From positions 1 through 43,859 of IMG/VR virus record IMGVR_UViG_2908567220_000006: DNA of 43,859 nt; one strand, 5' to 3'. A program made the translations under genes and the position numbers. Origin of the DNA: a virus. Taxonomy: Duplodnaviria; Heunggongvirae; Uroviricota; Caudoviricetes. Position 1 is the stretch's first letter. Each line of letters opens with the position of its first letter. The notes below the pieces were generated by a model, which saw nothing but the letters and a program-made list of their open reading frames with translations, searched no databases and was not told where the DNA came from. Positions 19,814-43,859 of the stretch are shown here, one piece after another.

Positions 19814-19814
19814 G

Positions 19815-27395: not shown

Positions 27396-30300
27396 TGCCG
27401 ATATATGAACAGGATCCTAAAGAGTTGCTTGGCGAGGATATTCAGCAAATAGCAGCACCTGATGACAGTAATTTCTATATGGAAACACCTTCTTTGCTTT
27501 CTGCTGTGAACCCATTTACCAGTGATCAACGCGTTCAAAGGTCTAGACAAGCAGCATTTCGTATAGATAACACGCTGGGTAGCTTTATTGCCAGTGCTCC
27601 TTTCAGTCAGTTTGACAGGGTTGAAGGATATAACCCATTTGATAACGATGCAGCAGATATTAAAGGCTATGAAGATTTTGCAGATTCGTTTATCAACTCC
27701 GGTTCGCATGAAGAAACAATGGCAATTAAACATCGAATCGATAAGCAAAGAACAGATAGAGAATATCTATCTGAAATGGGTGGTGCTGGTACTATTTCAA
27801 GCTTAGCAATGGGAATGATAGACCCGGTTAATGTGGCTGCAATGTTCATCCCTGTAGGGGCGGTAGCGCGTGGAGGAAGTATTGCTGAGACGGCAGGGCG
27901 TTTTGCCCTGGCGAATGCTGCTGGTGGGGGAGTATCAGAAGCCGCATTACAGGCCACTCAGGAAGCTCGCTCACCGATGGAGAGCGTATCGAACGTTGTT
28001 GTTGATGCTCTCGTTGGTGGGATCCTTGGTGCTGGTGCACAGCTACTTGCTGGACCTAGCGCGCGCGAGGCAGTGGTTAACTCAGTAGGTAATCATTTGC
28101 GAGGTATGGATTCTCCTCAAAGCATTGGTGCAGCTCAGGTTTTCAATACCACACTCGATCAGGAACAGCTCGCTGGACTTGGACTTGCTAACAAAACGTT
28201 GAGTGTCACTCCTGCTGGCCGCTTGGCGCAATCACCATCTCTTGTCTCCCGTCAGATTAACCAGCAGCTTGCCGAAAATAACTATTTCTTCGCCAAAAAT
28301 GATGAGGGGTTGGCTACGTTTACGGCAGTCGAGACTAAGATTAAGCAATACGACGCCATGCTTTATAAGCAGATGGAAGCTACTCGTGATGCTTACCAGC
28401 AGTACAGCAAATCTGTCAGCGCCCGCGGCGTGAAGAGGATGAACTTTATTGATTTCAATGAAGCTGTTGGCATGGCTATGCGCCGTGGTGATCAGAGTGA
28501 TATTCCTGAGGTTTCACAAGCAGCCGCCAGAATCCGCCCCATTTTTGAGACCACAAAAGCCCGTATGCAGGAATTGGGGATCCTTCCTGAGGATATCGAT
28601 GTCGTGACGGCGAAGAGTTATCTTCCCCGCATTTATAAGTTCGATAAGATACTTTCCGACCGCACTGAATTCAGAGGGCGAATTGCCAACTGGATACAAG
28701 TGATTAGTGCCAAAGGTGCTGACAAAGCAGGTCAGCGAATTGAAAAGATAAATTCATTGCTAAAAACTGCAGAGGAATCAGCACCGCGCGCTGATGCTCT
28801 CGCTAGTGAAATCGCTGAAGCGGAGAAATGGTCTGGTAAAAAAATTCTACTCATGGAAGAACTGGATAAACGAAATAAGCTTATATCTCAGGAGACTGAC
28901 ACACAGGCGCGTCTTACAAGAATAGAAAAAGAGTTGGCCGAGACTTCATCAGAAAAACTTCAGGCAAGAATGATGAAAGAAAGCTCTGACCTTAAAACAC
29001 GCCTTGATGATATAGCGCAGGCAAAGAGTGAGCTTCCTGTCTATCAGCGCCATATGGAGTTGCTGGATAATCCACGGAAATATCGTTCTGAGCTTCGCCG
29101 ACTGCAAAAACGGGCAAATTCAACCACAAGGCTGAATGCAAGCCGCGAGCGAGCACTGAAGCAGATGGAGCCTCTATCCCGAGAGGAAGCAGAGGACGCT
29201 GCTGACGAGATCGTGAATAAAATAATAGGCGCACCTTCCGGGCTTGTACCAGCCGATATTATCCCAGAGAGACTCGTTGGTCGGGCTGGTTTCACTAAAA
29301 GCAGAACGCTGCTTATTCCTGATGAGCGTATAGAAGATTTTCTTGAATCAGATGTTAACTACATCATGGAAAGTTATCTCCGGCAGGTGGCACCAGAAAT
29401 TGAGCTGACTGCGCAGTTTGGCCGTAAAGATATGGGGGAGCAAATCCGTCAGGTTAGTGAGGAATATACCCGGCTAATAAAAGAGGCTAAAACACCTAAA
29501 CGACGTGCAGTTCTTGAGAAGCAACGGGAGGCTGATATTAGGGATATTACGGCTATGCGTGATCGACTGCTTGGTACTTACGGTGCACCTCAAGATCCAC
29601 GCAGTTTCTTTGTTCGTGCCGGGCGAGTTGCTAGGAATATTAACTTCCTCCGTTTGCTTGGTGGAATGACTGTCTCCGCTGCAACTGATCTGATGCGACC
29701 GATGATGCAGCATGGCCTGAGAAAATCTCTCGGACCAATGGTAAGCATGCTTAAAAATATGGACTCAGTGAAAATTGCAACCAGGGATTTGCGAGAAATG
29801 GCAGTTGGGCTTGATTATGTCCTGTCTACGCGTACAAAGGCTATAGCGGATCTTACTGACCCCTATAGCCGGAGAAGCGCCGCTGAGCGAGGTCTGAACT
29901 GGATGACGCAGAAATTCGGTAACTGGACGCTGATGAATCAGTGGAACAGCGCACTTAAATCATGGTCTGGGATGATAGTGCAGTCGAGGATACTTGACGC
30001 GGCTCGCCAAGTTTCTGCTGGTGGCACGCTCTCCAAAAGTGAAATGCGGAAGATGGCACAGGTCGGCATCAATGAAGATGTTCTGCGCCGAATCGGGGAG
30101 CAATTCGGGAAGCACGGAGAGGATATGGACGGGCTGTTAACCGGGCATAGTCATCTGTGGGATGACCGTTTCGCTAGAGAGATTTTCCAGTCTGCAGTGC
30201 TGAAAGATGTAGACTCAGTGATTGTAACGCCTGGCGTAGGTGATACACCGCTGTTTTTTAGTAAAGAAGGCTGGAAGATGATCACGCAGTTCAAAACGTT

Positions 30301-30784
30301 TATCTTCGCACAGCATAACAGGGTGCTGGTATCTGGTATCCAGCAGGGCGATGCTGCATTCTATCTTGGTGCGCTTGGCACGATTGCGCTTGGCTCAATG
30401 GTCTATATGATGAAACAGAAGTTAAGCGGTCGCGATATCGACTACAGCTGGAATAACCTTGTGAAAGAGGGGATCGACCGGGGCGGAATGCTTGGCTGGC
30501 TCTCTGAGCCGCTGAATACCGTTGAGAACATAAGCGGCGGTAGGTTTGGTCTTGGCGCGATGTTTGGTGCGCCTCCGGTATCAAGGTTTCAGAGTCGTAA
30601 TGCTATTGGTGCTTTACTTGGTCCTACCTTTGATCTTGGCGGTGATGCCGCGACGGTTGCAAATGGTGTACTTAACGGAGAATTTGACAGCCAGCAAACC
30701 CACGCTGTCCGTAAAATGCTACCTTTTCAGAATCTGTGGGCGATATCACCATTACTAAATAAAGTTGAAGAGCAGATGAAATAG
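27395..30784 (+). CDS. very large internal virion/ejection protein (T7 gp16 position)
   Basis: 1129 aa with long coiled-coil-like stretches; last core gene before the accessory island. Confidence 0.5.
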   Translation: MPIYEQDPKELLGEDIQQIAAPDDSNFYMETPSLLSAVNPFTSDQRVQRSRQAAFRIDNTLGSFIASAPFSQFDRVEGYNPFDNDAADIKGYEDFADSFINSGSHEETMAIKHRIDKQRTDREYLSEMGGAGTISSLAMGMIDPVNVAAMFIPVGAVARGGSIAETAGRFALANAAGGGVSEAALQATQEARSPMESVSNVVVDALVGGILGAGAQLLAGPSAREAVVNSVGNHLRGMDSPQSIGAAQVFNTTLDQEQLAGLGLANKTLSVTPAGRLAQSPSLVSRQINQQLAENNYFFAKNDEGLATFTAVETKIKQYDAMLYKQMEATRDAYQQYSKSVSARGVKRMNFIDFNEAVGMAMRRGDQSDIPEVSQAAARIRPIFETTKARMQELGILPEDIDVVTAKSYLPRIYKFDKILSDRTEFRGRIANWIQVISAKGADKAGQRIEKINSLLKTAEESAPRADALASEIAEAEKWSGKKILLMEELDKRNKLISQETDTQARLTRIEKELAETSSEKLQARMMKESSDLKTRLDDIAQAKSELPVYQRHMELLDNPRKYRSELRRLQKRANSTTRLNASRERALKQMEPLSREEAEDAADEIVNKIIGAPSGLVPADIIPERLVGRAGFTKSRTLLIPDERIEDFLESDVNYIMESYLRQVAPEIELTAQFGRKDMGEQIRQVSEEYTRLIKEAKTPKRRAVLEKQREADIRDITAMRDRLLGTYGAPQDPRSFFVRAGRVARNINFLRLLGGMTVSAATDLMRPMMQHGLRKSLGPMVSMLKNMDSVKIATRDLREMAVGLDYVLSTRTKAIADLTDPYSRRSAAERGLNWMTQKFGNWTLMNQWNSALKSWSGMIVQSRILDAARQVSAGGTLSKSEMRKMAQVGINEDVLRRIGEQFGKHGEDMDGLLTGHSHLWDDRFAREIFQSAVLKDVDSVIVTPGVGDTPLFFSKEGWKMITQFKTFIFAQHNRVLVSGIQQGDAAFYLGALGTIALGSMVYMMKQKLSGRDIDYSWNNLVKEGIDRGGMLGWLSEPLNTVENISGGRFGLGAMFGAPPVSRFQSRNAIGALLGPTFDLGGDAATVANGVLNGEFDSQQTHAVRKMLPFQNLWAISPLLNKVEEQMK

Positions 30785-30785
30785 G

Positions 30786-31637
30786 ATGAAAAAAATAAAT
30801 TTGTTTTTTGGCATAGTGCTTTCAATAGTCTCTGTAAATCCTACAGCTGCCAGTTCATTGCAATGCAATAAGGATAACTTTGATGCATGCAAAACGTGCG
30901 AACAATTATCAAAGGCTATCGACTTAAAAGAACCTAATCGTGGCGATTACTATAGAGGGGCTTTATGGAATGGGCTTTACGCCTCTTATGTAATTAATTG
31001 CCCTGTGGTTGCAGAGAAGTTACTGAGCCATGGTGCTATACCATCATATGGCGGATATATGGGGTCTATGGGGGCGGTTCTGACAGGAAAATGGCCTCAT
31101 AACAATGAATCAATAAATCTTTCATGGGCAGATTTGCTTATAAAACATGGATTTGATGTTAATAGGCATACGGGGAATTATAAATCAGCTACTGAAGTAT
31201 GGGCTATAGATAAAAAACAGATTGAATATAAGTCAGTTTTTGACAAGTTAATTCAATCCAGCGAAGTAAAACCACTCGATCCTTCAAGAAATTTAGAATG
31301 GTGTGCGTCTGAAGGGTATCGCTCAGTTGTCGTTTATTCCCTTAACTCATGTATAGAAAATGCTATAAAACGTTTGGATGACGGTGTTTCTTCAGCGTCT
31401 GATATTTCATCAGCAGCCGTAAATTCCTGTACTAGCGATGTAGAAAATTTCAATAAGCATTTGGCATGCAAAGCAGCTGTTAAAGAAAACTCTGATAAAG
31501 AGAGAAGCAACGTTTACCAGTTATTAACCAGTGATAGTCAAATGAATAAAAATGTTATTGATATGCTGAAGGAAAGAAATATTGAAACGGTTCTTGAATT
31601 TAGAGCTGAAAATCGATCAGCGAAAACTGCACAGTGA
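30786..31637 (+). CDS. secreted Cys-rich protein with ankyrin-repeat-like segments (moron)
   Basis: N-terminal signal peptide MKKINLFFGIVLSIVSVNPTAA; AT-rich codon usage unlike flanking genes; segments ALWNGLYASYVINCPVVAEKLLSHGA and WADLLIKHGFDVN resemble ankyrin repeats. Confidence 0.55.
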   Translation: MKKINLFFGIVLSIVSVNPTAASSLQCNKDNFDACKTCEQLSKAIDLKEPNRGDYYRGALWNGLYASYVINCPVVAEKLLSHGAIPSYGGYMGSMGAVLTGKWPHNNESINLSWADLLIKHGFDVNRHTGNYKSATEVWAIDKKQIEYKSVFDKLIQSSEVKPLDPSRNLEWCASEGYRSVVVYSLNSCIENAIKRLDDGVSSASDISSAAVNSCTSDVENFNKHLACKAAVKENSDKERSNVYQLLTSDSQMNKNVIDMLKERNIETVLEFRAENRSAKTAQ

Positions 31638-31643
31638 TCAAAC

Positions 31644-31668
31644 AGGCCGCTTTCGCGGCCTTGTTTTT
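31644..31668. terminator. intrinsic terminator shared by convergent genes
   Basis: GGCCGC-TTTC-GCGGCC hairpin followed by TTGTTTTT on the plus strand. Confidence 0.6.
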
Positions 31669-31828
31669 AACGAATGCCACCGCCGCCCGGACGGGAATCC
31701 GCAGAACGCCCACCGCAGCGGGAGCCGTCAGCGGCAGTATCGCTGTCGTGCTGACAACGACCGGCAAAGGCCTGAGTTGAAGCTACCAGAGACAACAAAA
31801 CGAACAGTGCAGCAAATGCTTTTTTCAT
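31667..31828 (-). CDS. small secreted Gly-rich hypothetical protein
   Basis: Start at MKKAFAALFVLLSLVASTQAFA (signal-peptide-like); weak SD. Confidence 0.35.
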   Translation of the reverse strand: MKKAFAALFVLLSLVASTQAFAGRCQHDSDTAADGSRCGGRSADSRPGGGGIR

Positions 31829-31911
31829 TGTGAAAAATTTCCATCTATAAGCCACCTCAATGTGGCGTCAATGAGTGTAGCACTGACTTTTGTTTCGTCC
31901 ATAAAAAACTA

Positions 31912-32424
31912 CTATGCAGGCTTTTTGGATTTGTACGAATAATCCCACGGATAAACATTTCTACTAAGTGGAGCTGTATTCGTTCGTTCATGAAATAATT
32001 TTGTGAAATTCAATACGGAATCCATCCAAACTTTTGCGTTAGCTTTGGTGTGTGCGGGCGGGTCCCAATAAGCTAGTAAGGCTGCATCTCTTATTTCATT
32101 GACTGCATATATGAGATATGCGTTACTGGTTGGTTTTGGCCTGTAATTTCCTTGTTCATCAATCAATCCATATGACCACTCATCCCAACACTGTTCAGTA
32201 CATGAGTATGAATATGATGCATATTCACCAATATTGACATGAACCTTTCTGAGATGGAAGCCTAATACTTCCTCTGGTCTTTCAAAAAGAGTATCTTTTC
32301 CCAGATCAGGATGATGACCATGACGCCAGTGTTGTTTAAAAGCATCTTTTAGCGAAATCAGAAAGTCATCAGTTTTAAACTCACCAGTAGGTATAACCTT
32401 CCCGCTATACTCACTCAAAAACAT
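31912..32424 (-). CDS. hypothetical protein B (170 aa), downstream gene of a two-gene accessory operon
   Basis: Start overlaps the upstream gene by 14 nt; AT-rich; motif region HWRHGHHPDLGKDTLF...GFHLRKVHVNI; no confident family assignment. Confidence 0.55.
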   Translation of the reverse strand: MFLSEYSGKVIPTGEFKTDDFLISLKDAFKQHWRHGHHPDLGKDTLFERPEEVLGFHLRKVHVNIGEYASYSYSCTEQCWDEWSYGLIDEQGNYRPKPTSNAYLIYAVNEIRDAALLAYWDPPAHTKANAKVWMDSVLNFTKLFHERTNTAPLSRNVYPWDYSYKSKKPA

Positions 32425-32737
32425 CGAATTCCTCTTCCTTCATATGCGTTTCTAATGAGTTAAGCTGGCGGAAAGATATCTCTTTTGATTCTGCAGATGA
32501 GAGTTTTTTTATCCGCTTTATATTCTTTGTGATAGGAATAGACATTGTATGCACATCAGCGGATGCTCTTGGCTTTGTGCTGATAAAAATATGGCGCAAT
32601 GCCGCATTTTCACTATTGAACGAGCCAATAGCTGATTTACGTGCTACAACCTTACCAGTAAAAATACGACTCTTGCTACGCTTTGCATGAGTTCCGCTTC
32701 TTACCGGACCTCTCATCACGAATCCAAGTTTTGTCAT
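32411..32737 (-). CDS. hypothetical protein A (108 aa), upstream gene of a two-gene accessory operon
   Basis: GGAG SD 7 nt before the ATG; basic N-terminus; candidate promoter (-35 TTGCAG, -10 TACTAT) abutting the palindrome at 32780-32794. Confidence 0.5.
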   Translation of the reverse strand: MTKLGFVMRGPVRSGTHAKRSKSRIFTGKVVARKSAIGSFNSENAALRHIFISTKPRASADVHTMSIPITKNIKRIKKLSSAESKEISFRQLNSLETHMKEEEFDVFE

Positions 32738-32779
32738 CTTTAATCTCCGGTAAGTTACAGGTATAAAATAAAAACAGGT

Positions 32780-32794
32780 TTACCTTTAAGGTAA
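32780..32794. promoter_or_regulatory. palindrome copy at promoter of two-gene accessory operon
   Basis: Perfect TTACCtttaaGGTAA 43 bp upstream of the 108-aa gene start. Confidence 0.5.
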
Positions 32795-32867
32795 TAGTAC
32801 GCTATTCACCCCCGGTCTGCAATCTGTACAGAATTATTTAAAGGCACGTCCCTGTGCCGCCGACCCG

Positions 32868-33560
32868 TCAGAAGAACCCTGCCTTGTCGTTGATGTACTC
32901 CGCGTGGGTCTGGATATCACGCAGGCATTTGCTCACACCGACGATGTAGCAGAACATGGTGGTCAGTTCCGCCGCCGCGCCCGATACATCGTGCCCGTCT
33001 TCCTGTAACTGGTTCAGCAGATTCATCAGCAGTGAGTTCTCCGTCAGGCCGAGAACACCAGACGGCGAGTGAATCAGGCTACGGTAGCCGGGCTTCAGCG
33101 GGGCGCTGTAGGTTTTGTTCTCTATCTTCATCGCCTGCATTACTGCTGACGCCGTGGCGTTGGCTACCTGGTCGGCAACCATCTTTATGCGTTCTTCCTG
33201 CGGGAGCGAGTTTTTAATGTAACTTCCGGTGCGGCGGATCTGAGGAAGAACCTCACCTGTAACCCATTCAAGAAATCTGAATGCTCTCGTTCCCTCAGTC
33301 ATTGCCTCTTTGCAACGCAGAATAAGGATGTAGAGACCTGATTCTGAAACGATGGATAGTTCTTGTATTCCACCAGGGGTCTGTATTGAATACAGCCCCT
33401 TTTTGTTCCAGCCTTTTTTATCAAGTTTTCTCGCTTGTGTAACATCAATATTCAAAGCATTGCACACATCTTTGGTGACAAACCAAGGTTCTCCGTCAAT
33501 CATGAACATACGGATCTGGCAGGATGACTCAAAGGAAAAGATGGAAGGTTTGGTATTCAT
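32868..33560 (-). CDS. antirepressor (Bro-N domain with C-terminal Ant/KilA-C-like domain)
   Basis: Start at MNTKPSIFSFESSCQIRMFMIDGEPWFVTKDVC (Bro-N signature) with AAAGGTGA SD. Confidence 0.7.
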   Translation of the reverse strand: MNTKPSIFSFESSCQIRMFMIDGEPWFVTKDVCNALNIDVTQARKLDKKGWNKKGLYSIQTPGGIQELSIVSESGLYILILRCKEAMTEGTRAFRFLEWVTGEVLPQIRRTGSYIKNSLPQEERIKMVADQVANATASAVMQAMKIENKTYSAPLKPGYRSLIHSPSGVLGLTENSLLMNLLNQLQEDGHDVSGAAAELTTMFCYIVGVSKCLRDIQTHAEYINDKAGFF

Positions 33561-33827
33561 GGCGATCACCTTTGTAGTTAGGTTAATCACCACCGCTGAG
33601 ACCAATCAGATGGTGGTGAACTGTGCAGAGTTGGTCTTACCGGCTACAAAGGAACCCGGCGCACCTTTCGGTGCCCCCACACAGCCCACCATAGAATAGG
33701 TGCGCTTTACACATAAAAAAACCGCTTATGCGGCATATGTGCCTCTGTAGTAATCCGGGAGACCAATCCCGGCACTGGATTTTGCCAGTGCCCGATTACT
33801 ATGGCACAAGAGGAGTGCGATGTAAAT

Positions 33828-33842
33828 TTACCGCAAAGGTAA
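33828..33842. promoter_or_regulatory. palindrome copy upstream of Bro-N antirepressor
   Basis: Perfect TTACCgcaaaGGTAA. Confidence 0.45.
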
Positions 33843-33873
33843 ATATAAGCACTCCATTTGGTAATTGCAAACC

Positions 33874-34131
33874 TTATCTGGTTTGTTTTCGTAATTGTTC
33901 GGCACAATAGTCGAGATGTGTTTGCAGATCCTGCATAGACATCTGTGAGCTGGTGACGTAGTTAATCAGTGCAGTCAGTTCGGCAAGTGGGCCATCGACA
34001 TTAAATCCATCCTTATCGAGATCCCGGAGTAATTTCATCAAGTGCGATCCCTCCACCAGTGACCTGACGCCTCCCGGCGTGTGAATCCTTTCGGTAAATC
34101 CGTCTTCCAGTGGATAGTGATACTGCTGCAT
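33874..34131 (-). CDS. small antirepressor-domain protein, paralog of the Ant C-terminal domain; putative SOS-inducible antirepressor
   Basis: Start at MQQYHYPL with GGAG SD; SHLMKLLRDLDKDGFNVDGPLAELTALINYV...DLQTHLDY aligns by eye with the Bro-N antirepressor C-terminus; a LexA box overlaps its promoter. Confidence 0.55.
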   Translation of the reverse strand: MQQYHYPLEDGFTERIHTPGGVRSLVEGSHLMKLLRDLDKDGFNVDGPLAELTALINYVTSSQMSMQDLQTHLDYCAEQLRKQTR

Positions 34132-34152
34132 CTTATCTTCTCCATGCAATAA

Positions 34153-34168
34153 CTGTATATTTATACAG
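34153..34168. promoter_or_regulatory. LexA (SOS) box
   Basis: CTGTATATTTATACAG: perfect CTGT-N8-ACAG with AT-only spacer, one base from CTGTATATATATACAG; 22 bp upstream of the small antirepressor-domain gene. Confidence 0.7.
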
Positions 34169-34207
34169 TATCAAATAATTTGTTTGCTATCCAGCACGTT
34201 TTGCCAA

Positions 34208-34222
34208 TCACCTGAAAGGTAA
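34208..34222. promoter_or_regulatory. near-perfect palindrome copy (TCACC-N5-GGTAA) in divergent region before tailspike
   Basis: One mismatch; lies between the LexA box and the tailspike promoter region. Confidence 0.4.
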
Positions 34223-34326
34223 TATCTATTCGTATTTACAGCCTTTCTATCCATATATGGTTTTTCAGGTAATAGAATAACCAGATATGCGGCGCAACGG
34301 GTGCTGCGACTATCTGGAGATTTAAC

Positions 34327-37002
34327 ATGACGGTCTCAACCGAAGTTGACCACAACGAATACACTGGCAATGGTGTTACGACGACATTCCCTTACAAATT
34401 TAGGATCTTCAAAAAATCAGATCTGGTAGTACAGGTTGTTGACATTAACGAGAATATAAACGTACTGGTTCTTGATACAGATTACATCGTCACCGGAGCA
34501 GGAGGGTACAGCGGCGGTAATGTAATTCTCTCGAAGGCGTTGGCTAACGGTCATCAGATATCTATATCACGAGAACTACCAGCTACTCAGGAAACGGATT
34601 TACGTAATCAGGGTAAGTTCTTCGCTGAGGTACATGAGGATGCGTTCGACAAGTTGACCATGCTTATCCAGCAGTGCTTCAGCTTTCTACGCCTGTCCCT
34701 GCGCAAGCCCTCTTTCATCGCGAACTATTACGATGCGCTCAACAACCGCATTCGTAACCTGCGTGACCCGTCACAGGCGCAGGACGCAGCCACGAAGAAT
34801 TATGTTGATGGGCAGATCGTTGACAATACCAATGCCTGGAAAGCTGGTGATGACATTCTTGATCAGAAAATTGATAGCAATTTCCGAAGAACAATTCGGG
34901 TTCCTGAAAGTGATGTTGATATGGTTCCTACTATAGCTGCAAGAAAAAACTCGCTATTTGGGTGGAACAGCTCCAGTCAACCTGTCCCGATATTTTCTAT
35001 GACGGAAACTGCTGACCTGGCTATTAAGCTAGCAAGCACTGAGATGGGATTGGGTGGCAACCTTGTTGGTATTTACGATGGACGACCGCCAGTTGTTGTT
35101 ACCAATACAGTAACAGATAAAATCAAGGATGGTGCAGCCGGCCTGCGTAAGGATTTCGGAGCTGTAGGTGACGGATACCACGACGATACCGCCGCTTTTA
35201 ATGACTGGTGGGAATGCCTCATGGACCTTCTCTATAAGCGCCGGGGTGTTGAGAGCGACGAAACTGCAGTGCCGTTTATGCTTCAGAAAGGGCCCAGACT
35301 TCATATCGAAAACGGCACATTTATTTATAACGGTCCCGGACTAAATATCACTGATACTGACGCATTTGTTTTTATCGCCGATGGTGAGAGTTCGCTCGCT
35401 ACAAAAATTTTGCTTCCGGATGGTGTTTACTTATTCGATTTTGATAAAAACCCGGTTCATGCGCACCTTGCCAATCTGACCATTCATGGTGGGCTTGGTG
35501 CAGTGCGTTATAAATCTAAACAGCGTTCAACTAACAGCATTCATCTTTTTGAAAATCTACGACTGTCTCGATATAAAGAATGCGGTATTAGTAATAATGC
35601 TATCGATATGCCGTATTTTCGTGTCAGTGGCTCAATGTTTTACGGGGACCCGACAAAACAAACCGTTGGTGTTTGCGTTTCAGGATATGCCGCCGGTGGT
35701 TTTATTCGTGATTCCGTTTTCAGTGATAACCGATACGGCATTAAGTTGGCTGTAGGGAAAAACAGCGTCGAGAGCAACGGCCCTGCAACTCCATACCTTA
35801 TTCAGTGCAATGATTTTTACCGTACTGGTAATCGCGGAGGCTCTGCATCATACGACATCTGGATTGAGCCGGGGGTAACCAGCAATAATGCCGGTCGCGG
35901 TATAAAACTGAGTCAAAACAAGTTCGGACAGGAGAACTTAAAATCTCCGGATACGCATATTTTGATTGCTGATGCCGCTGTATCCGGTAGTGGCTTAGGG
36001 CTAAATGGCGACAGGGCTCACGTTGAAACGCAGTCGGCAGGTTTTGTTTCTGGGGTGAGGTTTGACGGCAATGATGTTAACTCAAACAGCGCCGGGTATA
36101 TTGCGCCGTTTATCCGGACATTTACACCTAACGTGGGGAATTTCAGGTTTTCTGATTTGTACGACAACGATATGCCATCACGCATCATTGAGTTTGCAGG
36201 TGGTATTACTCAGTCACAAATAGGGAACCTGGGGCGTACAAATGTGTTTGACGCGTCTATGTGCCTGGCATTGCAGAAAGGTGTTGAACCTAAGCTGCTA
36301 TCCAACATGAATGACGTCTTCCGCCTGATTGATCCTCTGAATTATTACGTGGGGCACCCGCAGTCAACACTGGTTCCTGTTGGGGGCCAGCAGGATGATT
36401 TTGAATTACTTTACTCCGGTCCTACGTCTACTATCGGACTTAGTAACGCCAGCCGGTCATCGCTCAATAATTCATATGGGGGAATATTTGAAGCAGCTGA
36501 AATCACAATGAATACAGACGAAGGTCGCGCAGTTGCGTCTATAAGTGGTGGGCTGGCGGGGCGTAAACACTGGATTGATTTTGATATTCGTCGAGGCTCT
36601 TCAAATCCCGTAGGCTCTGTTGTGATGGAGGTCATGGACCCTACAGGGGTAACCATTCTGTTTCGTAGAATAATCCTGGTTGATACCATTACTCGATGGC
36701 AAAAAGTCGTTCTCCCGTACATTCCTAATGTAAACGGAGATATTATCGTCCGGTTCCGCTCAAATGTTTATGTGGCTGGATCAGCTACGAATTTTGTTAT
36801 TGGCAACCTCAATGTTTACCGAAACGAAACGCCAGTGAATACGGGGCATAATAGCGGTCTGCGTATGCAGTGGGATCTGCAACACGCAGTGAAAGGCGCA
36901 CGACATGAATGGTATGATAATGCAGGTAATCTGAGAGCTAAAAATGGTGCGCCGACGTCTGCCACCGATGGCGTAATTATCAGTGCAAACCCGGTAGTGT
37001 GA
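34327..37002 (+). CDS. tailspike protein (N-terminal particle-binding domain plus beta-helix-like enzymatic domain)
   Basis: 891 aa; N-terminus MTVSTEVDHNEYTGNGVTTTFPYKFRIF typical of podovirus tailspike/fibre adaptor domains; long Gly/Asn/Ser-rich beta-rich body. Confidence 0.75.
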   Translation: MTVSTEVDHNEYTGNGVTTTFPYKFRIFKKSDLVVQVVDINENINVLVLDTDYIVTGAGGYSGGNVILSKALANGHQISISRELPATQETDLRNQGKFFAEVHEDAFDKLTMLIQQCFSFLRLSLRKPSFIANYYDALNNRIRNLRDPSQAQDAATKNYVDGQIVDNTNAWKAGDDILDQKIDSNFRRTIRVPESDVDMVPTIAARKNSLFGWNSSSQPVPIFSMTETADLAIKLASTEMGLGGNLVGIYDGRPPVVVTNTVTDKIKDGAAGLRKDFGAVGDGYHDDTAAFNDWWECLMDLLYKRRGVESDETAVPFMLQKGPRLHIENGTFIYNGPGLNITDTDAFVFIADGESSLATKILLPDGVYLFDFDKNPVHAHLANLTIHGGLGAVRYKSKQRSTNSIHLFENLRLSRYKECGISNNAIDMPYFRVSGSMFYGDPTKQTVGVCVSGYAAGGFIRDSVFSDNRYGIKLAVGKNSVESNGPATPYLIQCNDFYRTGNRGGSASYDIWIEPGVTSNNAGRGIKLSQNKFGQENLKSPDTHILIADAAVSGSGLGLNGDRAHVETQSAGFVSGVRFDGNDVNSNSAGYIAPFIRTFTPNVGNFRFSDLYDNDMPSRIIEFAGGITQSQIGNLGRTNVFDASMCLALQKGVEPKLLSNMNDVFRLIDPLNYYVGHPQSTLVPVGGQQDDFELLYSGPTSTIGLSNASRSSLNNSYGGIFEAAEITMNTDEGRAVASISGGLAGRKHWIDFDIRRGSSNPVGSVVMEVMDPTGVTILFRRIILVDTITRWQKVVLPYIPNVNGDIIVRFRSNVYVAGSATNFVIGNLNVYRNETPVNTGHNSGLRMQWDLQHAVKGARHEWYDNAGNLRAKNGAPTSATDGVIISANPVV

Positions 37003-37009
37003 GGAAATT

Positions 37010-37264
37010 ATGGCATTAAAAATGACATTCAATTTTAACGGCGTGACCGTGGTAGATGGCGTGCTTAATGTGATTATGCCATCAATCAGCACCGACAAGA
37101 CAACGCTTAATTTCGGACTGGCTTACCGGGTCAGCGAAAGCGATCCATTGCTTAACTCGGAAACGTACAGTTGCCCGTATGACCTGACGGGAGCGGACCC
37201 TTTCACACAAGCATACAGCTTCATAAAAAATCTTGGCTCTTTTTATGGGGCGAAAGATATATAA
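37010..37264 (+). CDS. hypothetical protein downstream of tailspike
   Basis: 84 aa, AT-rich, 8 bp after the tailspike stop. Confidence 0.4.
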   Translation: MALKMTFNFNGVTVVDGVLNVIMPSISTDKTTLNFGLAYRVSESDPLLNSETYSCPYDLTGADPFTQAYSFIKNLGSFYGAKDI

Positions 37265-37382
37265 AATATTTACTGTACTAGTAATTAGATTGATATATTT
37301 TAAGTTTACCAATTATCCATAAACGGTTTATTGTGTATGATGAACTTACCCAACTAAGGAGGTTCATCATGCATAGTAAACG

Positions 37383-37796
37383 GTGGTCATCATGTCCGCA
37401 TCGCTAACCGCTGATACAATAAATCAGGGGCTTAGCTACGGTGCGCTGGCGGCAGTTATCGCCGGCGTACCTCCTGAAGTGGCGCTGGGATCGCTGGCCG
37501 GGGCGGTAATTTTTGTTACCTCTGCAGTTGAGTATCCGGTCAAGCGCCGCGTTCTCCTGGCGCTACTTAGCTTTCTCTGCGGCCTTCTCTTCTACAAACC
37601 CACAGCATCAATCCTTATCGGCGTTGCCAGCATGATCCCCACCATCACACAGGACTCGTTCGAGCGGGGTATCGTCTACTCCGCCGGCGCGTTCGTTGCG
37701 GCAATTGTCGCAGTGCGGGTCGGGATATGGCTGTATCACCGCTCTGACAATCCGCGCGATTTAATCCCGGGAGGAAAAGACGATGACAGGCCATGA
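37383..37796 (+). CDS. putative holin (multi-TM membrane protein)
   Basis: 137 aa with several hydrophobic helices; first gene of the cassette ending in endolysin and spanins. Confidence 0.5.
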   Translation: MVIMSASLTADTINQGLSYGALAAVIAGVPPEVALGSLAGAVIFVTSAVEYPVKRRVLLALLSFLCGLLFYKPTASILIGVASMIPTITQDSFERGIVYSAGAFVAAIVAVRVGIWLYHRSDNPRDLIPGGKDDDRP

Positions 37797-38088
37797 TCTG
37801 CTGCTTATCGCTAATTCCATCATCTGCGGCGGGATAGCGCTGCGGGTGATGTTCTTCCAGCGCAACGGATCGCGCCATCGCCGCTGGGGCGGGTGGATAG
37901 CCTATTTCCTCATCGTGGCGGCAGCCAGCATCCCGCTGCGCACCGCGTACTCATACCTGTACCACTTCCCTATGACCGCAGATCTTTCTGAGGTCGTTAT
38001 CAATGCTGTGATGTTCGCCGCGGTGCTGAAGACACGCGGCAACGTCGTGCAAATATTCAAGATATCGAGGTCGCAACATGGACATTAA
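37783..38088 (+). CDS. putative holin/antiholin-like membrane protein
   Basis: 101 aa with 2-3 predicted TM helices; overlaps both neighbours. Confidence 0.45.
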
Positions 38089-38707
38089 CGAGTTTCAGAA
38101 AGCTGCCGGCGTTAGCCTGGCGCTGGCCACACGCTGGCATCCGCACATTGTGGCGGCCATGAAAGAGTTTGGCATTATCAAGCCGTTGGATCAGGCGATG
38201 TTTATTGCCCAGGCCGGGCATGAAAGCACTGGATTTACCCAGCTAGTTGAGAGCTTCAACTACAGCGTCAGCGGACTGGCTAACTTCGTTCGGGCTGGGC
38301 GTCTCACTCAGGGACAGGCTAATGCACTGGGTCGCCGTGCTGGTGAACCGCCATTACCACTCGAGCGCCAGCGCGCGATCGCAAATCTGGTGTACAGCAA
38401 ACGCATGGGTAACAATGCTCCTGGCGATGGCTGGAGTTACCGAGGTCGCGGACTTATCCAGATTACCGGCTTGAATAACTATCGTGACTGCGGAAACGGT
38501 CTGAAAGTTGACCTGCTGGAGAATCCTGAACTGCTGGCACAGGACGAATACGCGGCTCGTAGCGCGGCCTGGTTCTTCTCCTGCAAAGGCTGCATGAAGT
38601 ATATCGGCGATATTGCACGTGTAACTCTGATTATCAATGGTGGCAGGAACGGCATTGATGACCGGCGCGCGCGATACATCATTGCCAGTAAGGTGCTGGC
38701 TGTATGA
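38078..38707 (+). CDS. endolysin, glycoside hydrolase family 19 (chitinase-like lysozyme)
   Basis: Motifs [12 protein letters not shown] and [13 protein letters not shown] typical of GH19 endolysins. Confidence 0.8.
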
Positions 38708-39186
38708 TCTGGGCATTCGTAAAAGCATACTGGAAACAGTTGCTTATCGTGGCGATGCTTGCTGTTCTTGCCACATCAGGAGTTGTTGCCTGGAATATAC
38801 ACGGCAGCCGCCAGTACGATGCCGGGTATGCGCAGGCGGTAGAAGACCGCAAAGACGAAGAAGACAAAGTTCGTCAGTACTACGAACAGGAGAAAGTGAC
38901 CAATGAACGTGAAGCGCAGCATAGGATCGATCAGGCGCGCAGTGATGCTCTTGATGCTGCCGCTCGCGCTGGCAGGTTGCAGCAACAGCTCGTTGCCATC
39001 CGTGAGCAGCTCAGGCAGTATAACGCCATTGTCGGCGCTGGGACGTCAGCCGCAGACACCGGAGTTTTGCTTGCCGACGTGCTCAGCAAATCTCTCGAGA
39101 GAAATAGACAACTGGCAGAGTATGCTGACCGGGCAGCCGAAGCCGGAAGAGTCTGCGAAAAACAGTATGACACCCTGACAAGATAG
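38704..39186 (+). CDS. i-spanin (Rz-like)
   Basis: N-terminal TM helix then a charged coiled-coil periplasmic domain; follows the endolysin. Confidence 0.6.
38903..39178 (+). CDS. o-spanin (Rz1-like lipoprotein) embedded in the Rz frame
   Basis: Alternate frame wholly inside the Rz gene; signal peptide with lipobox LALAGC; Pro/Ser-rich mature part. Confidence 0.55.
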   Translation: MNVKRSIGSIRRAVMLLMLPLALAGCSNSSLPSVSSSGSITPLSALGRQPQTPEFCLPTCSANLSREIDNWQSMLTGQPKPEESAKNSMTP

Positions 39187-39360
39187 CATGGCATTTTTCA
39201 TGGTACTGATTTCCGGTGACGGTATATAAAACGGTACTAAAAAAATGAAGTTTTGGAAAAATGTTATCACTCAATTGGTTATGGCTGCCGTAAATAATTG
39301 AGTGGGAATGATTTAACGTCTGGCAACAGCCTGCACGTAAAAGCAGTAAAGTACCTCTAA

Positions 39361-39618: not shown

Positions 39619-40809
39619 ATGTTGACTGACACCAGGCTGCGTCACCTTAAGCCGAAGGAGAAACTCTATAAAGTTAATGACCGTGATGGTCTGTATGTTG
39701 CGGTCACTCCGGCTGGAACTATTTCATTTCGTTATAACTATTCAATAAACGGAAGACAGGAGACTGTTACTTTTGGCCGCTATGGTGTTGGAGGGATCAC
39801 GCTTGCAGAAGCGCGTGAACGGCTCAATGAAGCCAAAAAAATGGTTGCCAGTGGAATATCGCCTGCGAGGGAAAAAGCCAGAGATAAAGCGCGTATTAAA
39901 GATGCGGAGACTTTTGGTGCGTGGACTGAGAAATGGTTACGCGGTTATCAAATGGCTGAATCGACGCGTGATATGCGGCGTTCGGTATATCAAAGGGAGT
40001 TGAAGTCAAAATTTGCCCAGCAGAAACTTAGTGAGATTACACATGAAGACTTACGCGCATTAACCGATAACATTGTCGAGAGAGGGGCACCAGCGACAGC
40101 TGTACACGCTAGAGAGATTGTATTGCAAGTCTATCGCTGGGCTATTGAGCGCGGTCAGAAGGTGGAGAATCCTGCTGATCTGGTACGGCCTGCAAGCATA
40201 GCGAAATTTGAGCCTCGAGACAGGGCATTGACGCCAGTTGAAATTGGTCTGATGTATCGGTACATGGAACGGGTAGGAACGACGCCATCAATCAGAGCAG
40301 CGGTTAAACTTTTGCTGTTAACGATGGTACGTAAAAGTGAGCTTACTAACGCAACCTGGAACGAGATCAATTTTAGTGAGGCATTATGGACGATACCAAA
40401 GGAAAGGATGAAACGACGTAATCCACATTTGGTTTTTCTTTCCAGACAGGCAATGGATATTATGATTGCTCTCAAAACCTTTGCCGGTAGCTCTGATTTT
40501 ATCCTTCCTTCGCGGTACGATTCCGATGCGCCAATGAGTAGCGCTACTTTAAACCGGGTTTTGACACTGACGTATCGCCTGGCTCAGAAAGAAGGGGAGT
40601 TGTTGCCTAAGTTTGGTCCCCATGACTTACGGCGTACAGCCAGCACCTTGCTACATGAGGCCGGGTACAATACTGACTGGATTGAGAAGAGCCTTGCCCA
40701 TGAACAAAAAGGGGTACGAGCTGTTTATAACAAGGCAGAATATCGTGAGCAGAGGGCTGAGATGCTACAAGATTGGGCGAATATGATTGATGAATGGACT
40801 AGTAAGTAG
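39619..40809 (+). CDS. int: tyrosine integrase (P4-type)
   Basis: 396 aa; P4-like N-terminal arm-binding region (LYKVNDRDGLYVAVTPAGTISFRYNYSINGRQ) and C-terminal catalytic region (HDLRRTAST...Y). Confidence 0.85.
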   Translation: MLTDTRLRHLKPKEKLYKVNDRDGLYVAVTPAGTISFRYNYSINGRQETVTFGRYGVGGITLAEARERLNEAKKMVASGISPAREKARDKARIKDAETFGAWTEKWLRGYQMAESTRDMRRSVYQRELKSKFAQQKLSEITHEDLRALTDNIVERGAPATAVHAREIVLQVYRWAIERGQKVENPADLVRPASIAKFEPRDRALTPVEIGLMYRYMERVGTTPSIRAAVKLLLLTMVRKSELTNATWNEINFSEALWTIPKERMKRRNPHLVFLSRQAMDIMIALKTFAGSSDFILPSRYDSDAPMSSATLNRVLTLTYRLAQKEGELLPKFGPHDLRRTASTLLHEAGYNTDWIEKSLAHEQKGVRAVYNKAEYREQRAEMLQDWANMIDEWTSK

Positions 40810-40944
40810 TTAATAATCAGTAAGTTAAGTGGTTGTGCTTCTTTTTTCTACGGTAGGAGAGCAATTTTAGCCGCTAAAATTTACTGAATCTTTACTGGTT
40901 TTATCTGGATTGCATAAAAAGGAAAAATAAAAGTGGATTTGCCC

Positions 40945-41850
40945 CTATATTTCCAGACATCTGTTATCACTTAACCCATTACAAGCCCGCTGCCGCAGAT
41001 ATTCCCGTGGCGAGCGATAACCCAGCGCACTATGCGGATGCCATTCGTTATAATGCTCGAACGCCTCTGCAAGGTTCTTTGCTGCCGTTAACCCGTCTGG
41101 TTTGGGCATGATACTGATGTAGTCACGCTTTATCGTTTTCACGAAGCTCTCTGCTATTCCGTTACTCTCCGGACTCCGCACCGCCGTGTTCTTCGGTTCA
41201 AGTCCCAACATCCGGGCGAACTGGCGTGTTTCATTAGCCCGGTAGCATGAACCATTATCCGTCAGCCACTCCACTGGAGACGACGGAAGATCGTTGCCGA
41301 AGCGGCGTTCCACCGCTCCCAGCATGACGTCCTGTACTGTTTCACTGTTGAAGCCGCCGGTAGTGACCGCCCAGTGCAGTGCCTCACGATCACAGCAGTC
41401 CAGCGCGAACGTGACACGCAGTCTCTCTCCGTTATCACAGCAGAACTCGAACCCGTCAGAGCACCATCGCTGATTGCTTTCTTTCACGGCCACTCTGCCT
41501 GTATGTGCCCGTTTCGATGGCGGTACAGCAGGTTTTCGCTCAAGCAACAGCGCATTCTGGCGCATGATCCGGTAAACACGTTTGGCATTGATCGCAGGCA
41601 TACCATCAAGTTCTGCCTGTCTGCGAAGCAGCGCCCATACCCGACGATAACCATACGTGGGCAGCTCTCCGATAACATGGTGTATACGGAGAAGCACATC
41701 CGTATCATCAGTGTGACGACTGCGGCGGCCATCCATCCAGTCATCGGTTCGTCTGAGAATGACGTGCAACTGCGCACGCGACACCCGGAGACAACGGCTG
41801 ACTAAGCTTACTCCCCATCCCCGGGCAATAAGGGCGCGTGCGCTATCCAC
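40945..41850 (-). CDS. insD: IS2 transposase OrfB (InsD)
   Basis: 301 aa, recognised as IS2 OrfB from memory; expressed by frameshift from OrfA. Confidence 0.85.
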
Positions 41851-42218
41851 TTTTTTGCCCGTCCATATTCAACGGCTTCTTTGAGGAGTTCATTTTCCAT
41901 CGTTTTCTTGCCGAGCAGGCGCTGGAGTTCTTTAATCTGCTTCATGGCGGCAGCAAGTTCAGAGGCAGGAACAACCTGTTCTCCGGCGGCGACAGCAGTA
42001 AGACTTCCTTCCTGGTATTGCTTACGCCAGAGAAATAACTGGCTGGCTGCTACACCATGTTGCCGGGCAACGAGGGAGACCGTCATCCCCGGTTCAAAGC
42101 TCTGCTGAACAATTGCGATCTTTTCCTGTGTGGTACGCCGTCTGCGTTTCTCCGGCCCTAAGACATCAATCATCTGTTCTCCAATGACTAGTCTAAAAAC
42201 TAGTATTAAGACTATCAC
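41808..42218 (-). CDS. insC: IS2 transposase OrfA (InsC)
   Basis: HTH-containing OrfA; overlaps OrfB in a different frame. Confidence 0.85.
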
Positions 42219-42295
42219 TTAAATAAGTGATATTGGTTGTCTGGAGATTCAGGGGGCCAGTCTAAAAAGTGCCTGAGTTGTCTGTAATTATACAA

Positions 42296-42898
42296 TGGAT
42301 GAATCAATACCCTAAGACCGGCTGGCTATTGCTGTGTATCTATATTGCACTCGGTGTAGTTCGTCACAGAGTAATTAATGCTGAATCTGGAAGTGTATTT
42401 CGTGGACTACTCAATCTTAGGAAGCGCCGGCTAGAGCAAATGCTGACACAGCCATATTCGAATAAAAATGCGGTCCGTCTGGCAAAGCGTGAGCTTCGTC
42501 AGCGCAGCCTTTATCGGCTCACAGGCTTGTATAATTATCGGCTGCAGGATTTGGCTGTAATAATGTGTGATCGTTATGGGTTGCGGGCTGGTTATCTCAA
42601 GCCGTGGCGTAACTGGCTCGAAGAACGGGATGGACGGATTGTGTTCAACAGGAAATGGCATTGTTTTCGCTGGCGTCTTTTTCTGGTAGGTCAGATTGTA
42701 AACACAGTTCTACTAATATTATTCATTATGTATATAGTTTCTCATTCTTCGGCCGAAATGATCGCACCGCTTATGTTACTCTTCATGCTTGTATGGTGGT
42801 TTCCTTGGCTAATGATCACCTCGGTACCTACCCCTAGGTGGACTCGCGAAATGGAAGTCTATCTTGAGAAATTTAACGCTGAACAGACCATGGTTTAA
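42296..42898 (+). CDS. hypothetical membrane protein (N-terminal TM, basic soluble domain, two C-terminal TM helices)
   Basis: Start at ATG 42296 (MDESIP) rather than the ORF-track start at 42269, which lies in the IS2 target duplication; IS2 sits 27 bp upstream. Confidence 0.5.
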   Translation, partial: WMNQYPKTGWLLLCIYIALGVVRHRVINAESGSVFRGLLNLRKRRLEQMLTQPYSNKNAVRLAKRELRQRSLYRLTGLYNYRLQDLAVIMCDRYGLRAGYLKPWRNWLEERDGRIVFNRKWHCFRWRLFLVGQIVNTVLLILFIMYIVSHSSAEMIAPLMLLFMLVWWFPWLMITSVPTPRWTREMEVYLEKFNAEQTMV

Positions 42899-42945
42899 AC
42901 TGTTCTTTGTTACCATGCATTCAGAGTGAAGGTAATGACTCCAAC

Positions 42946-43449
42946 TTATTGATAGTGTTTTATGTTCAGATAATGCCCGATGACTTTGTCATGCAGCTCC
43001 ACCGATTTTGAAAACGACAGCGACTTCCGTCCCAGCCGTGCCAGGTGCTGCCTCAGATTCAGGTTATGCCGCTCAATTCGCTGCGTATATCGCTTGCTGA
43101 TTACGTGCAGCTTTCCCTTCAGGCGGGATTCATACAGCGGCCAGCCATCCGTCATCCATATCACCACGTCAAAGGGTGACAGCAGGCTCATAAGACGCCC
43201 CAGCGTCGCCATAGTGCGTTCACCGAATACGTGCGCAACAACCGTCTTCCGGAGACTGTCATACGCGTAAAACAGCCAGCGCTGGCGCGATTTAGCCCCG
43301 ACATAGCCCCACTGTTCGTCCATTTCCGCGCAGACGATGACGTCACTGCCCGGCTGTATGCGCGAGGTTACCGACTGCGGCCTGAGTTTTTTAAGTGACG
43401 TAAAATCGTGTTGAGGCCAACGCCCATAATGCGGGCTGTTGCCCGGCAT
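42946..43449 (-). CDS. insB: IS1 transposase InsB
   Basis: 167 aa, recognised as IS1 InsB. Confidence 0.85.
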
Positions 43450-43643
43450 CCAACGCCATTCATGGCCATATCAATGATTTTCTGGTGCGTACCGGGTTGA
43501 GAAGCGGTGTAAGTGAACTGCAGTTGCCATGTTTTACGGCAGTGAGAGCAGAGATAGCGCTGATGTCCGGCGGTGCTTTTGCCGTTACGCACCACCCCGT
43601 CAGTAGCTGAACAGGAGGGACAGCTGATAGAAACAGAAGCCAC
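43368..43643 (-). CDS. insA: IS1 InsA
   Basis: 91 aa, [43 protein letters not shown] recognised as IS1 InsA. Confidence 0.85.
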
Positions 43644-43698
43644 TGGAGCACCTCAAAAACACCATCATACACTAAATCAGTAAGTTGGCAGCATCACC

Positions 43699-43859
43699 GG
43701 AAGAATGGAAATAATATTAACGGTTTTAGTTTCTTGTTTGGTATTCAGTTGATCGGTTTGATAAACATCGGCGGCATGATCGTCAGCATTTGACTGGCAT
43801 CCTGCCAGAGTGAATGACGCTAACATTGCCACAGGCAGAAGACATTTTTTAAATTTCAT
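43699..43859 (-). pseudogene. lipoprotein gene truncated at its 3' end by IS1
   Basis: Starts at the window edge with MKFKKCLLPVAMLASFTLAGCQ (signal peptide and lipobox); the reading frame runs into the IS1 terminus. Confidence 0.45.

Follow-up and report, generated by a model that had tools for sequence, protein, structure and literature searches.

The stretch of DNA analyzed here (the window) is the IMG/VR virus record IMGVR_UViG_2908567220_000006, assigned to the Caudoviricetes, at its full length of 43,859 nucleotides. Our subject is a candidate membrane protein gene near its right end, an intact open reading frame (hereafter the ORF) on the plus strand at positions 42269..42898, which starts with GTG, spans 630 nt and encodes a predicted inner-membrane protein of 209 amino acids. 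Most of the window is occupied by a prophage. The ORF lies to the right of this prophage, within the left end of a second mobile element, an island integrated at guaA, and is followed by an insertion sequence (IS) and by the remains of the chromosomal gene yfgH.

The preliminary description of this DNA, made from the sequence alone, had placed the gene at 42296-42898 and counted 200 amino acids. We retain the end at 42898, while the ATG start at 42296 is probably nine codons short. The reading frame opens at a GTG at 42269, 27 nt upstream of this ATG, and the resulting N-terminal extension, MPELSVIIQ(W), is conserved in all 18 full-length homologues compared, with M1, P2 and W10 invariant. The codon equivalent to the start is ATG in the copies from Pantoea, Lonsdalea and Serratia and in one metagenome copy, and the RefSeq entry WP_023308176.1, annotated as 'hypothetical protein', corresponds to the 630-nt version. 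Because of the conserved extension, the ATG codons in relatives and the RefSeq annotation, we took the gene to be 42269-42898. The ratio of nonsynonymous to synonymous substitution rates (dN/dS) was 0.10-0.33 in the deeper pairwise comparisons across genera, and by this measure the ORF is a real gene under purifying selection and not a chance reading frame. A scan around the ORF for native promoters and terminators gave no convincing signal; it found one weak promoter-like site just past the stop codon of the integrase gene (int) and no terminators.

The sequence profile of the product bears out the earlier picture of a basic domain, rich in arginine and tryptophan, with one hydrophobic helix on its N-terminal side and two on its C-terminal side. 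The hydrophobic segments lie at about residues 18-36, 137-159 and 165-186, the domain between them (34-136) holds 24 lysine or arginine residues versus 8 aspartate or glutamate residues, and the whole protein contains 22 arginines and 10 tryptophans and has an isoelectric point of 10.2. Three hydrophobic peaks and a positively charged central domain recur in 37 family members. In their alignment the mean net charge of the central domain is +10.9, compared with -0.8 for the N-terminal tail and about 0 for the loop between the second and third transmembrane segments (TM2 and TM3). Applying the positive-inside rule to this charge pattern, we predict that the N-terminus lies outside and that the central domain and the C-terminal helix lie inside, while TM2 and TM3 form a hairpin with an outer loop of 7 residues. 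The predicted layout thus comprises TM1 (~18-36), a basic helical cytoplasmic domain (34-136), the hairpin (~137-186), and a cytoplasmic C-terminal helix (189-208).

Of 5.8 billion proteins screened by a word-indexed search, 26 matched the family, all of them from Enterobacterales. From 1.84 billion cluster representatives, an exhaustive profile search retrieved 50 clusters of proteins of ~200-250 amino acids with the same layout of one plus two transmembrane segments, the exceptions being fragments and one repetitive artefact of 432 amino acids; many truncated cluster members exist as well. Distant members show 15-24% identity (profile E about 1e-35). Conservation in the family is highest in the cytoplasmic domain and the C-terminal helix, with the motifs ELRQ..L..LTG, RLQ, YLxPWRxWLxExxGxIxF and TxEMExYxxxFN, and lowest in TM2 and TM3.

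The preliminary description could not place the protein in any family, and searches of Pfam, NCBIfam, PHROG, PADLOC and the PDB agree with it. A sequence-profile search of the PDB with the ORF product found no match. Pfam DUF2207_C scored 15.5 bits against a gathering threshold of 33 (E 0.015); 5 of the 37 members matched this domain, all below threshold (best E 1.4e-4), and no other signal recurred in the family. The PHROG matches of the family were limited to single members at E 0.0048 or weaker. A check for lipoprotein exclusion factors of the TrbK or EexN kind found no lipobox; the cysteine C23 lies within TM1 and is replaced by L, I, F or V in aligned homologues. By these tests the gene and its family are uncharacterized and have no defined family or fold, while the type of element that carries the gene is already known from GIsul2 and from a preprint on PIME elements. 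A literature search with the RefSeq accession found nothing.

The consensus allele of the ORF, with leucine at position 64, is present in at least 1000 contigs from many Enterobacterales, and across Escherichia, Shigella, Klebsiella, Enterobacter, Salmonella, Dickeya and Yersinia its identity is 90% or more. The window allele differs from it by one nucleotide (C for T at 42459), which changes the conserved hydrophobic residue to serine (L64S). This L64S allele was found in at least 169 E. coli contigs, and all six places examined were left ends or remnants of the island. As separate observations, an IS3-family element cuts short the copy of the ORF in E. coli ABWA45-type strains (L021 8484-8916), a metagenome copy is split into two frames (L043 7617-8201), and insertion sequences strike this end of the island repeatedly.

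The sequence between the prophage and the ORF begins with a hybrid attachment (att) site at 39297..39314 (plus strand), in which the right attachment site (attR) of the prophage is fused to the left attachment site (attL) of the island. This site duplicates the 3' end of guaA: the sequence starting at 39297, ATTGAGTGGGAATGA, reproduces the last guaA codons, and the core GAGTGGGA at 39300-39307 is the one published for GIsul2 (PMC9376610). Over positions 39297-39688, the window is 98.2% identical to the stretch from the guaA stop codon to int in E. coli M8. The gene that follows (39619..40809, plus strand) encodes a P4-type tyrosine integrase of a guaA-specific island, with the Pfam domains Arm-DNA-bind_3, Phage_int_M and Phage_integrase; this integrase is 98% identical to the one encoded after guaA in the prophage-free strains E. 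coli M8 and STEC309. Comparison with M8 (L002 8882-9004) identified the native spacer between int and the ORF (40810..40933, plus strand), which is now severed from the ORF by a complete IS2 of 1331 bp (40934..42264, minus strand; Pfam HTH_Tnp_1 and rve on its two reading frames). The insertion is simple, flanked by a duplicated 5-bp target (AAAAG, 40929-40933 and 42265-42269), and it is absent from the IS-free copies of the island. A gap of 4 nt separates the end of IS2 from the GTG, and the native 123-nt spacer, with its likely Shine-Dalgarno sequence AGGA (40920-40923), which stands 9 nt before the GTG in intact elements, now lies 1.3 kb away. The gene had been described as situated between the integrase and IS1; both do flank it, but a complete IS2 intervenes, and the integrase is not that of the prophage.

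On the other side of the ORF, the last 32 bp of native island sequence (42899..42930, plus strand) are delimited by a megablast match to IS-free E. coli copies that spans 42265-42930. They are followed by an IS1 of 768 bp (42931..43698, minus strand; Pfam InsA and DDE_Tnp_IS1). Since this IS1 has no target-site duplication, its two flanks being different, and since its right flank maps within yfgH of STEC309 (L001 14455-14615), we conclude from the alignment that it marks a deletion, by which luxR, alpA, repA, traJ, trbJ, trbK, trbL, the cargo genes, attR, yfgI and the 3' part of yfgH have been lost. The island attR that is missing here is present in STEC309 (L001 13441). What remains of the chromosomal lipoprotein gene yfgH is a 5' fragment (43699..43859, minus strand; 100% match to STEC309 yfgH) that runs out of the window at its end; as it is cut by IS1, yfgH is therefore a pseudogene in the host strain of the window. 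The window keeps just the left end of the island (attL, int, IS2, ORF and IS1), which is a remnant and not a functional element.

The preliminary description proposed that the gene is a moron or lysogenic-conversion gene next to the phage integrase. The prophage occupies 1..39296 (plus strand) and is of the Uetakevirus (epsilon15/phiV10) type according to its phage match and to the Pfam domains RecT, portal and endolysin. Its lysis cassette ends at 39186, and the ORF follows ~3 kb downstream of this cassette (1.7 kb in IS2-free copies), a proximity that, together with the inclusion of the ORF by prophage predictors in six IMG/VR contigs, is what speaks for a moron, lysogenic-conversion or superinfection-exclusion gene of the prophage. 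Several comparisons contradict this reading. The prophage ends at the att core in 39297-39314, so that the ORF lies outside its attR. Positions 1-20000 of the window match Escherichia phage vB_EcoP_PAS61, the closest relative of the prophage, over 72% of their length at 97.5% identity, starting at PAS61 position 1554. The PAS61 integrase gene is found at 295-1551, that is, just left of window position 1, and the PAS61 map closes with the lysis genes. By this alignment the integrase gene that belongs to the prophage falls just beyond the left edge of the window, at the opposite end of the phage genome, and PAS61 has no homologue of the ORF. To the left of 39297, the window matches the right end of a prophage of the same kind in E. 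coli PK6, where an Rz-like gene is directly followed by yfgI, with neither an integrase gene nor the ORF. A tblastn search of 50,697 phage records with the ORF product found no match.

Prophage-free strains carry guaA, int and the ORF. In one of them, E. coli GCA_900450385.1 (L088), the order guaA, int, IS2, ORF, IS1 and truncated yfgH reproduces a remnant identical to that in the window. The check proposed in the preliminary description, a look at prophage-free strains, thus places the gene outside the prophage, although what is found there is the cargo of an island and not a housekeeping gene. The six IMG/VR 'viral' contigs that contain the ORF are 87-94% identical to the window in the lysis region and 99.7% identical in the ORF, and because of this difference we assign separate histories to the prophage and the ORF. 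Judged by their alignments, these contigs are prophage calls that overrun the att site. The genome comparisons already refute membership of the ORF in the prophage, and we consider it hardly credible. The arrangement in the window is a tandem array at the guaA att site, with the Uetakevirus-type prophage upstream of the island remnant, to which it is unrelated, and the hybrid site 39297-39314 shared by both. The same tandem layout, with other prophage variants, was seen in further E. coli genomes and IMG/VR contigs, where boundary calls likewise overrun into the island.

The island is of the kind described as PIME subfamily 1 (PIME1), i.e. guaA-integrating mobilizable elements that depend on an IncP helper and are related to GIsul2 (bioRxiv 10.64898/2026.01.12.698999). 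According to the same preprint, the hallmark of PIME1 is a divergent luxR/alpA pair together with large defense cargo, a second accessory region lies between the integrase and the regulators, and the way in which PIME1 senses its helper is stated as unknown (bioRxiv 10.64898/2026.01.12.698999). In the window, the core GAGTGGGA at 39300 marks integration at the 3' end of guaA, and a P4-type tyrosine integrase is the first gene after attL. The luxR/alpA pair, repA, traJ and trbJ-trbK-trbL are all absent from the window, removed by the IS1-associated deletion. They follow int and the ORF in conserved order in M8, RM10042, Shigella flexneri, Dickeya, Pantoea and metagenome contigs. We are thus all but certain that the ORF is variable hotspot cargo of a guaA-integrating mobilizable element of PIME subfamily 1, a relative of GIsul2.

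The IS-free gene order is guaA, int, ORF, a luxR-type gene on the opposite strand, alpA, the helicase gene repA, a hypothetical gene, traJ, trbJ, a gene of 57 codons, trbL, a HigA-like gene, cargo, att and yfgI; the 57-codon gene between trbJ and trbL was named trbK by position only. Besides metagenome contigs, E. coli M8 and RM10042, Shigella flexneri, Dickeya, Citrobacter, Phytobacter, Pantoea and Lonsdalea show this intact layout. Among the cargo are an ABC-3C/Lamassu-type system, an MmeI-type enzyme and a pair of OLD-TOPRIM and UvrD proteins. The intact element of RM10042 and M8 measures 22.2 kb and carries the Lamassu-type system, like PIME1EcRHB23-C07 as described. Among 5426 complete E. 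coli genomes, 128 had a related integrase at guaA and 35 had the ORF. We also observed that a non-coding stretch of 577 nt separates the ORF from luxR in the E. coli type of PIME1 (M8, L002 9635-10211), compared with ~117 nt in the Pantoea type.

The position between int and luxR is occupied by different genes in different elements. A metagenome scan anchored on the LuxR-type regulator collected 41 PIME loci, of which 14 had the family gene in this slot (the L043 copy being split). In L046 (7207-8589) the slot is taken by a Shedu SduA gene (PADLOC E 7.8e-165); the backbone of L072 is nearly the same, with LuxR at 82% and int in the matching position. In L049 (7011-8306) the slot holds a dGTPase defense gene (PADLOC E 1.3e-148), and L050 (7011-8306) has a near-identical reading frame of 431 codons; the PADLOC assignments apply to L046 and L049 only. 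By RefSeq annotation, an EexN lipoprotein gene occupies the slot in VE-V11-M and in many E. coli genomes (L003 9751-9984), and a similar lipoprotein-like reading frame of 77 codons does so in L044 (7746-7979). A restriction-modification system has been described in the slot of a Morganella element (bioRxiv 10.64898/2026.01.12.698999). Judged by gene content, these comparisons show the int-luxR slot to be a second, int-proximal defense hotspot of PIME1 elements. Because similar backbones carry other genes in this slot, we regard the ORF as swappable cargo and not as a core gene. The idea that it is core to luxR-type PIMEs was rejected by the LuxR-anchored scan, in which the group of PIMEs with a 40-55% identical LuxR had no copy. 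A gene of 209 codons in VE-V11-M was considered as a hidden homologue and likewise rejected, as it gave no tblastn match and is LuxR-like instead.

All family members with an examined neighborhood are located on a mobile element or next to one, and these settings have no partner gene in common. In satellites resembling P4 or phage-inducible chromosomal islands (PICI), the homologue stands directly downstream of an HTH_3 regulator gene (with a 14-nt overlap in L026) and converges on the integrase gene; in the satellite L023, homologue and integrase gene are separated by inserted genes for a DUF6119 protein and an HD phosphohydrolase. In an MPF_G integrative and conjugative element (ICE), a family member lies within the type IV secretion system (T4SS) region. 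Further members are carried by IncI1, Col-type, Rep3 and large Pantoea plasmids, often beside Abi (abortive infection), SIR2 or Ppl genes. The plasmid search gave nine matches only, none of them on IncC plasmids, and no homologue was found on plasmids that carry GIsul2. On three Pantoea plasmids (L011 5211-6603, L081 5177-6621 and L082 5207-6597), a gene for an Xer-like recombinase of 245 amino acids is followed 26-29 nt downstream by a family member; the recombinases are 85-89% identical and the downstream family members only 28-40%. We considered whether this recombinase is a fragment of the PIME integrase and rejected the possibility, since it is a conserved full-length Xer-like protein without similarity to that integrase. 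The Pantoea pair is flanked by SIR2/ATPase, Ppl or RepB genes, and it looks like a fixed recombinase with a hypervariable partner or hotspot.

A comparable contrast is seen within PIME1. Across lineages, the integrase is 92-98% identical, alpA 92-100% and repA 88-100%, compared with 62-80% for the ORF and 72-76% for luxR. The dN/dS of the ORF in these comparisons (0.21-0.27) is among the highest of the compared backbone genes, only repA reaching 0.25 in one pair. Its synonymous divergence (dS) exceeds that of int, alpA and repA, which points to a mosaic history.

These contexts bear on the main rival to a protective function, namely a role in the life cycle of the element. The product would then be a membrane-anchored sensor or modulator that works with LuxR/AlpA, with the HTH_3/HTH_35 regulators of satellites, or with the tyrosine recombinase; it could, for example, couple the assembly of the helper plasmid's T4SS or the entry of a phage to excision, or tether excised DNA through its basic domain. 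Consistent with such a role, the gene adjoins two unrelated recombinases on the same strand (123 nt after the PIME integrase, 26-29 nt after the Pantoea recombinase), and the satellite copies share an operon with the HTH_3 regulator at the switch. The identities of the ORF and luxR fall in step (76/76, 80/74, 62/72 and 92/97%), the conserved part of the product is cytoplasmic and strongly basic, and the sensing of the helper by PIME1 is an unknown according to the preprint (bioRxiv 10.64898/2026.01.12.698999). On the other hand, PIME1 backbones that carry Shedu, dGTPase or EexN genes in the slot evidently do not need the ORF for their cycle, the PIME group with the more distant LuxR does without it, and solitary copies on Col-type, Rep3 and IncI1 plasmids and in the T4SS region of the ICE have no recombinase or regulator nearby. 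We consider a life-cycle role unlikely. A broader proposal is that the family constitutes a new membrane-anchored module that works with tyrosine recombinases or with the master switch of integrative elements. Its basic cytoplasmic domain at the inner membrane would sense or intercept DNA transfer, for example T4SS activity of a helper plasmid or the entry of a phage genome, and would then either block it or relay the signal to excision control. This would explain the divergent alleles immediately downstream of conserved, mutually unrelated recombinases as well as the HTH_3 operon in satellites, and we rate it as a long shot.

A further explanation is that the gene has no protective role. It could encode an orphan immunity protein to a membrane-targeting toxin or a small addiction-type membrane toxin, or be a neutral hitchhiker, and in the window it would be a decaying relic. 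One lineage, with a 53% identical member, resides on metagenome colicin plasmids (L083 and L084) with colicin M and pore-former genes, where it converges on a DUF6710 gene across a gap of 8 nt. There is also a weak, sub-threshold NCBIfam match to an immunity family (E 0.12). Decayed copies exist, namely the IS3-truncated copy, the split copy in L043 and the truncated cluster members, and the copy in the window is cut off from its native upstream region and bears the L64S change. Against this stand the purifying selection across genera (dN/dS 0.1-0.3) and the maintenance of an intact ORF in more than 1000 contigs of many Enterobacterales. Moreover, the colicin genes of L083 and L084 each have, judging by position only, a small reading frame on the opposite strand at the usual place of an immunity gene, and a large conserved cytoplasmic domain like that of the family is not known from immunity proteins to pore-formers. 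On balance we find the non-protective explanations rather unlikely, taken together.

Our favored reading, to which we give a probability of about 35%, is that the ORF product may be a protective protein directed against incoming DNA. It would act alone as a gatekeeper at the cytoplasmic membrane of the carrier cell, with expression in the quiescent state of the element. The cytoplasmic domain, tethered to the membrane, would obstruct foreign DNA arriving at the inner face; phage genome entry or early infection, or else the entry of conjugative DNA, could be the step affected. The protein would thus be a functional analogue of T4 Imm, P22 SieA, F TraS and SXT Eex. The exclusion factor suggested in the preliminary description survives in this form, by virtue of the slot position shared with Shedu, dGTPase and EexN genes of sister islands, while its attribution to the prophage does not. 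A less likely variant is triggered membrane damage resembling that by RexB, which we favor less because the transmembrane hairpin is the least constrained part of the protein.

Several observations weigh against a protective function. The argument from hotspot position is one of guilt by association. The predicted topology exposes very little of the protein to the periplasm, which is a misfit with proteins that exclude by a block on the outer side. A tyrosine recombinase or a regulatory switch is repeatedly found next to the gene, which would also suit a life-cycle role, and in satellites the homologue appears fixed while cargo inserts beside it (L023 vs L030), like a semi-core gene rather than swappable cargo. 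Scans of Pfam, NCBIfam, PHROGs v4 and PADLOC-DB v2 with the ORF product and 37 relatives returned nothing significant, although systems described after 2023 lie beyond the coverage of the PADLOC and PHROG scans. The dN/dS of the ORF stays below 1 throughout and thus gives no evidence of positive selection. There is no mention of the gene in the PIME preprint (bioRxiv 10.64898/2026.01.12.698999), unless the new system 'RHB_A' described there corresponds to it.

The variant that involves membrane damage leads to a distinct explanation, an abortive-infection effector. Here the cytoplasmic domain would sense infection, and the transmembrane hairpin would oligomerize, depolarize the membrane and kill the cell. 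The defense-hotspot position is compatible with this, as are the Abi, SIR2 or Ppl genes next to some plasmid copies. In TM2, the polar residues Q142 and N145 suit helix-helix association, N145 being nearly invariant among close homologues. The ORF product itself has no match in PADLOC, and one distant member of the 37 gave a weak match to a '4TM effector' (E 8.8e-4), which, being confined to this single member, may be an artefact of hydrophobic composition. A pore-lining hairpin would be expected to be constrained, whereas TM2 and TM3 are the least conserved parts of the family, and no regulator or antitoxin partner is conserved. An abortive-infection effector therefore seems to us distinctly improbable.

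Whichever function the family has, the copy in the window is probably a weakly expressed or silent relic, since IS2 has removed the native spacer and the Shine-Dalgarno sequence, a scan of the window found no promoter-like site facing the ORF from the end of IS2, L64S affects a conserved position, and the other functions of the island are gone. For the window itself, a stranded and probably silent island remnant is a mostly ordinary finding. If the protective reading is true, a compact single-gene family without known relatives would join the repertoire of defense and exclusion systems, and the int-proximal slot of PIME elements would become a true defense hotspot beside the larger cargo region already reported. 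Given the spread of the consensus allele, a phenotype of any kind would concern numerous strains, both clinical and plant-associated. Independently of function, tandem arrays at guaA can mislead prophage callers and readers alike.

Several features of the prophage were noted in passing. Rfam models for C4 antisense RNA (78.6 bits) and isrK (74.7 bits) match positions 33609-33791 on the minus strand, adjoining a reading frame at 32868-33605 (minus strand) whose syntenic counterpart in related prophages is annotated with a BRO-N domain; the module resembles the antirepressor control of the P1/P7 type. In the late region, two overlapping reading frames at 31912-32737 (minus strand) correspond to genes that are annotated, in related prophages, for a toxin of the YafO family and for a small hypothetical protein upstream of it. 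A tRNA-Arg gene (anticodon TCT) is located at 14928-15004 (minus strand), between the terminase and portal genes.

Among known systems, the nearest in genetic organization is the hypothetical gene between int and luxR in PIME1 elements of the PIME1EcRHB23-C07 type and in islands related to GIsul2. These share with the window the type of element, the guaA site, the core GAGTGGGA, the integrase and the gene order. The preprint neither names nor tests this gene. Compared with an intact PIME1, the element in the window is reduced to int and the ORF, split by IS2. The Shedu, dGTPase and EexN genes of sister elements are likewise single genes in this slot, and the integrases of their backbones are 92-98% identical. 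In contrast to their products, which are soluble nucleases, phosphohydrolases or a lipoprotein, the ORF product is a three-helix membrane protein without a recognizable catalytic motif. With DUF2207 proteins it shares a weak similarity over the last cytoplasmic stretch and the transmembrane hairpin, which may reflect hydrophobic composition; those proteins are much larger and have no known function.

Mobile elements encode a number of inner-membrane exclusion proteins, which act against phages (T4 Imm, P22 SieA, lambda RexB) or against conjugation (F TraS, SXT/R391 Eex). They are small, located in the inner membrane, expressed in the resident state and fast-diverging; the specificity determinants of SXT Eex are cytoplasmic, and some exclusion proteins are co-transcribed with a maintenance regulator. 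The ORF product resembles them in size, membrane location and divergence, and its satellite homologues are likewise co-transcribed with a regulator, of the HTH_3 type. It differs from them in that no similarity of sequence or fold was detected in the Pfam, PHROG and PADLOC scans of 37 members, and in that exclusion genes adjoin traG or cI whereas the ORF adjoins an integrase gene. The likeness to these exclusion proteins would thus be one of context only, and it is the closest analogy that we can offer for the family.

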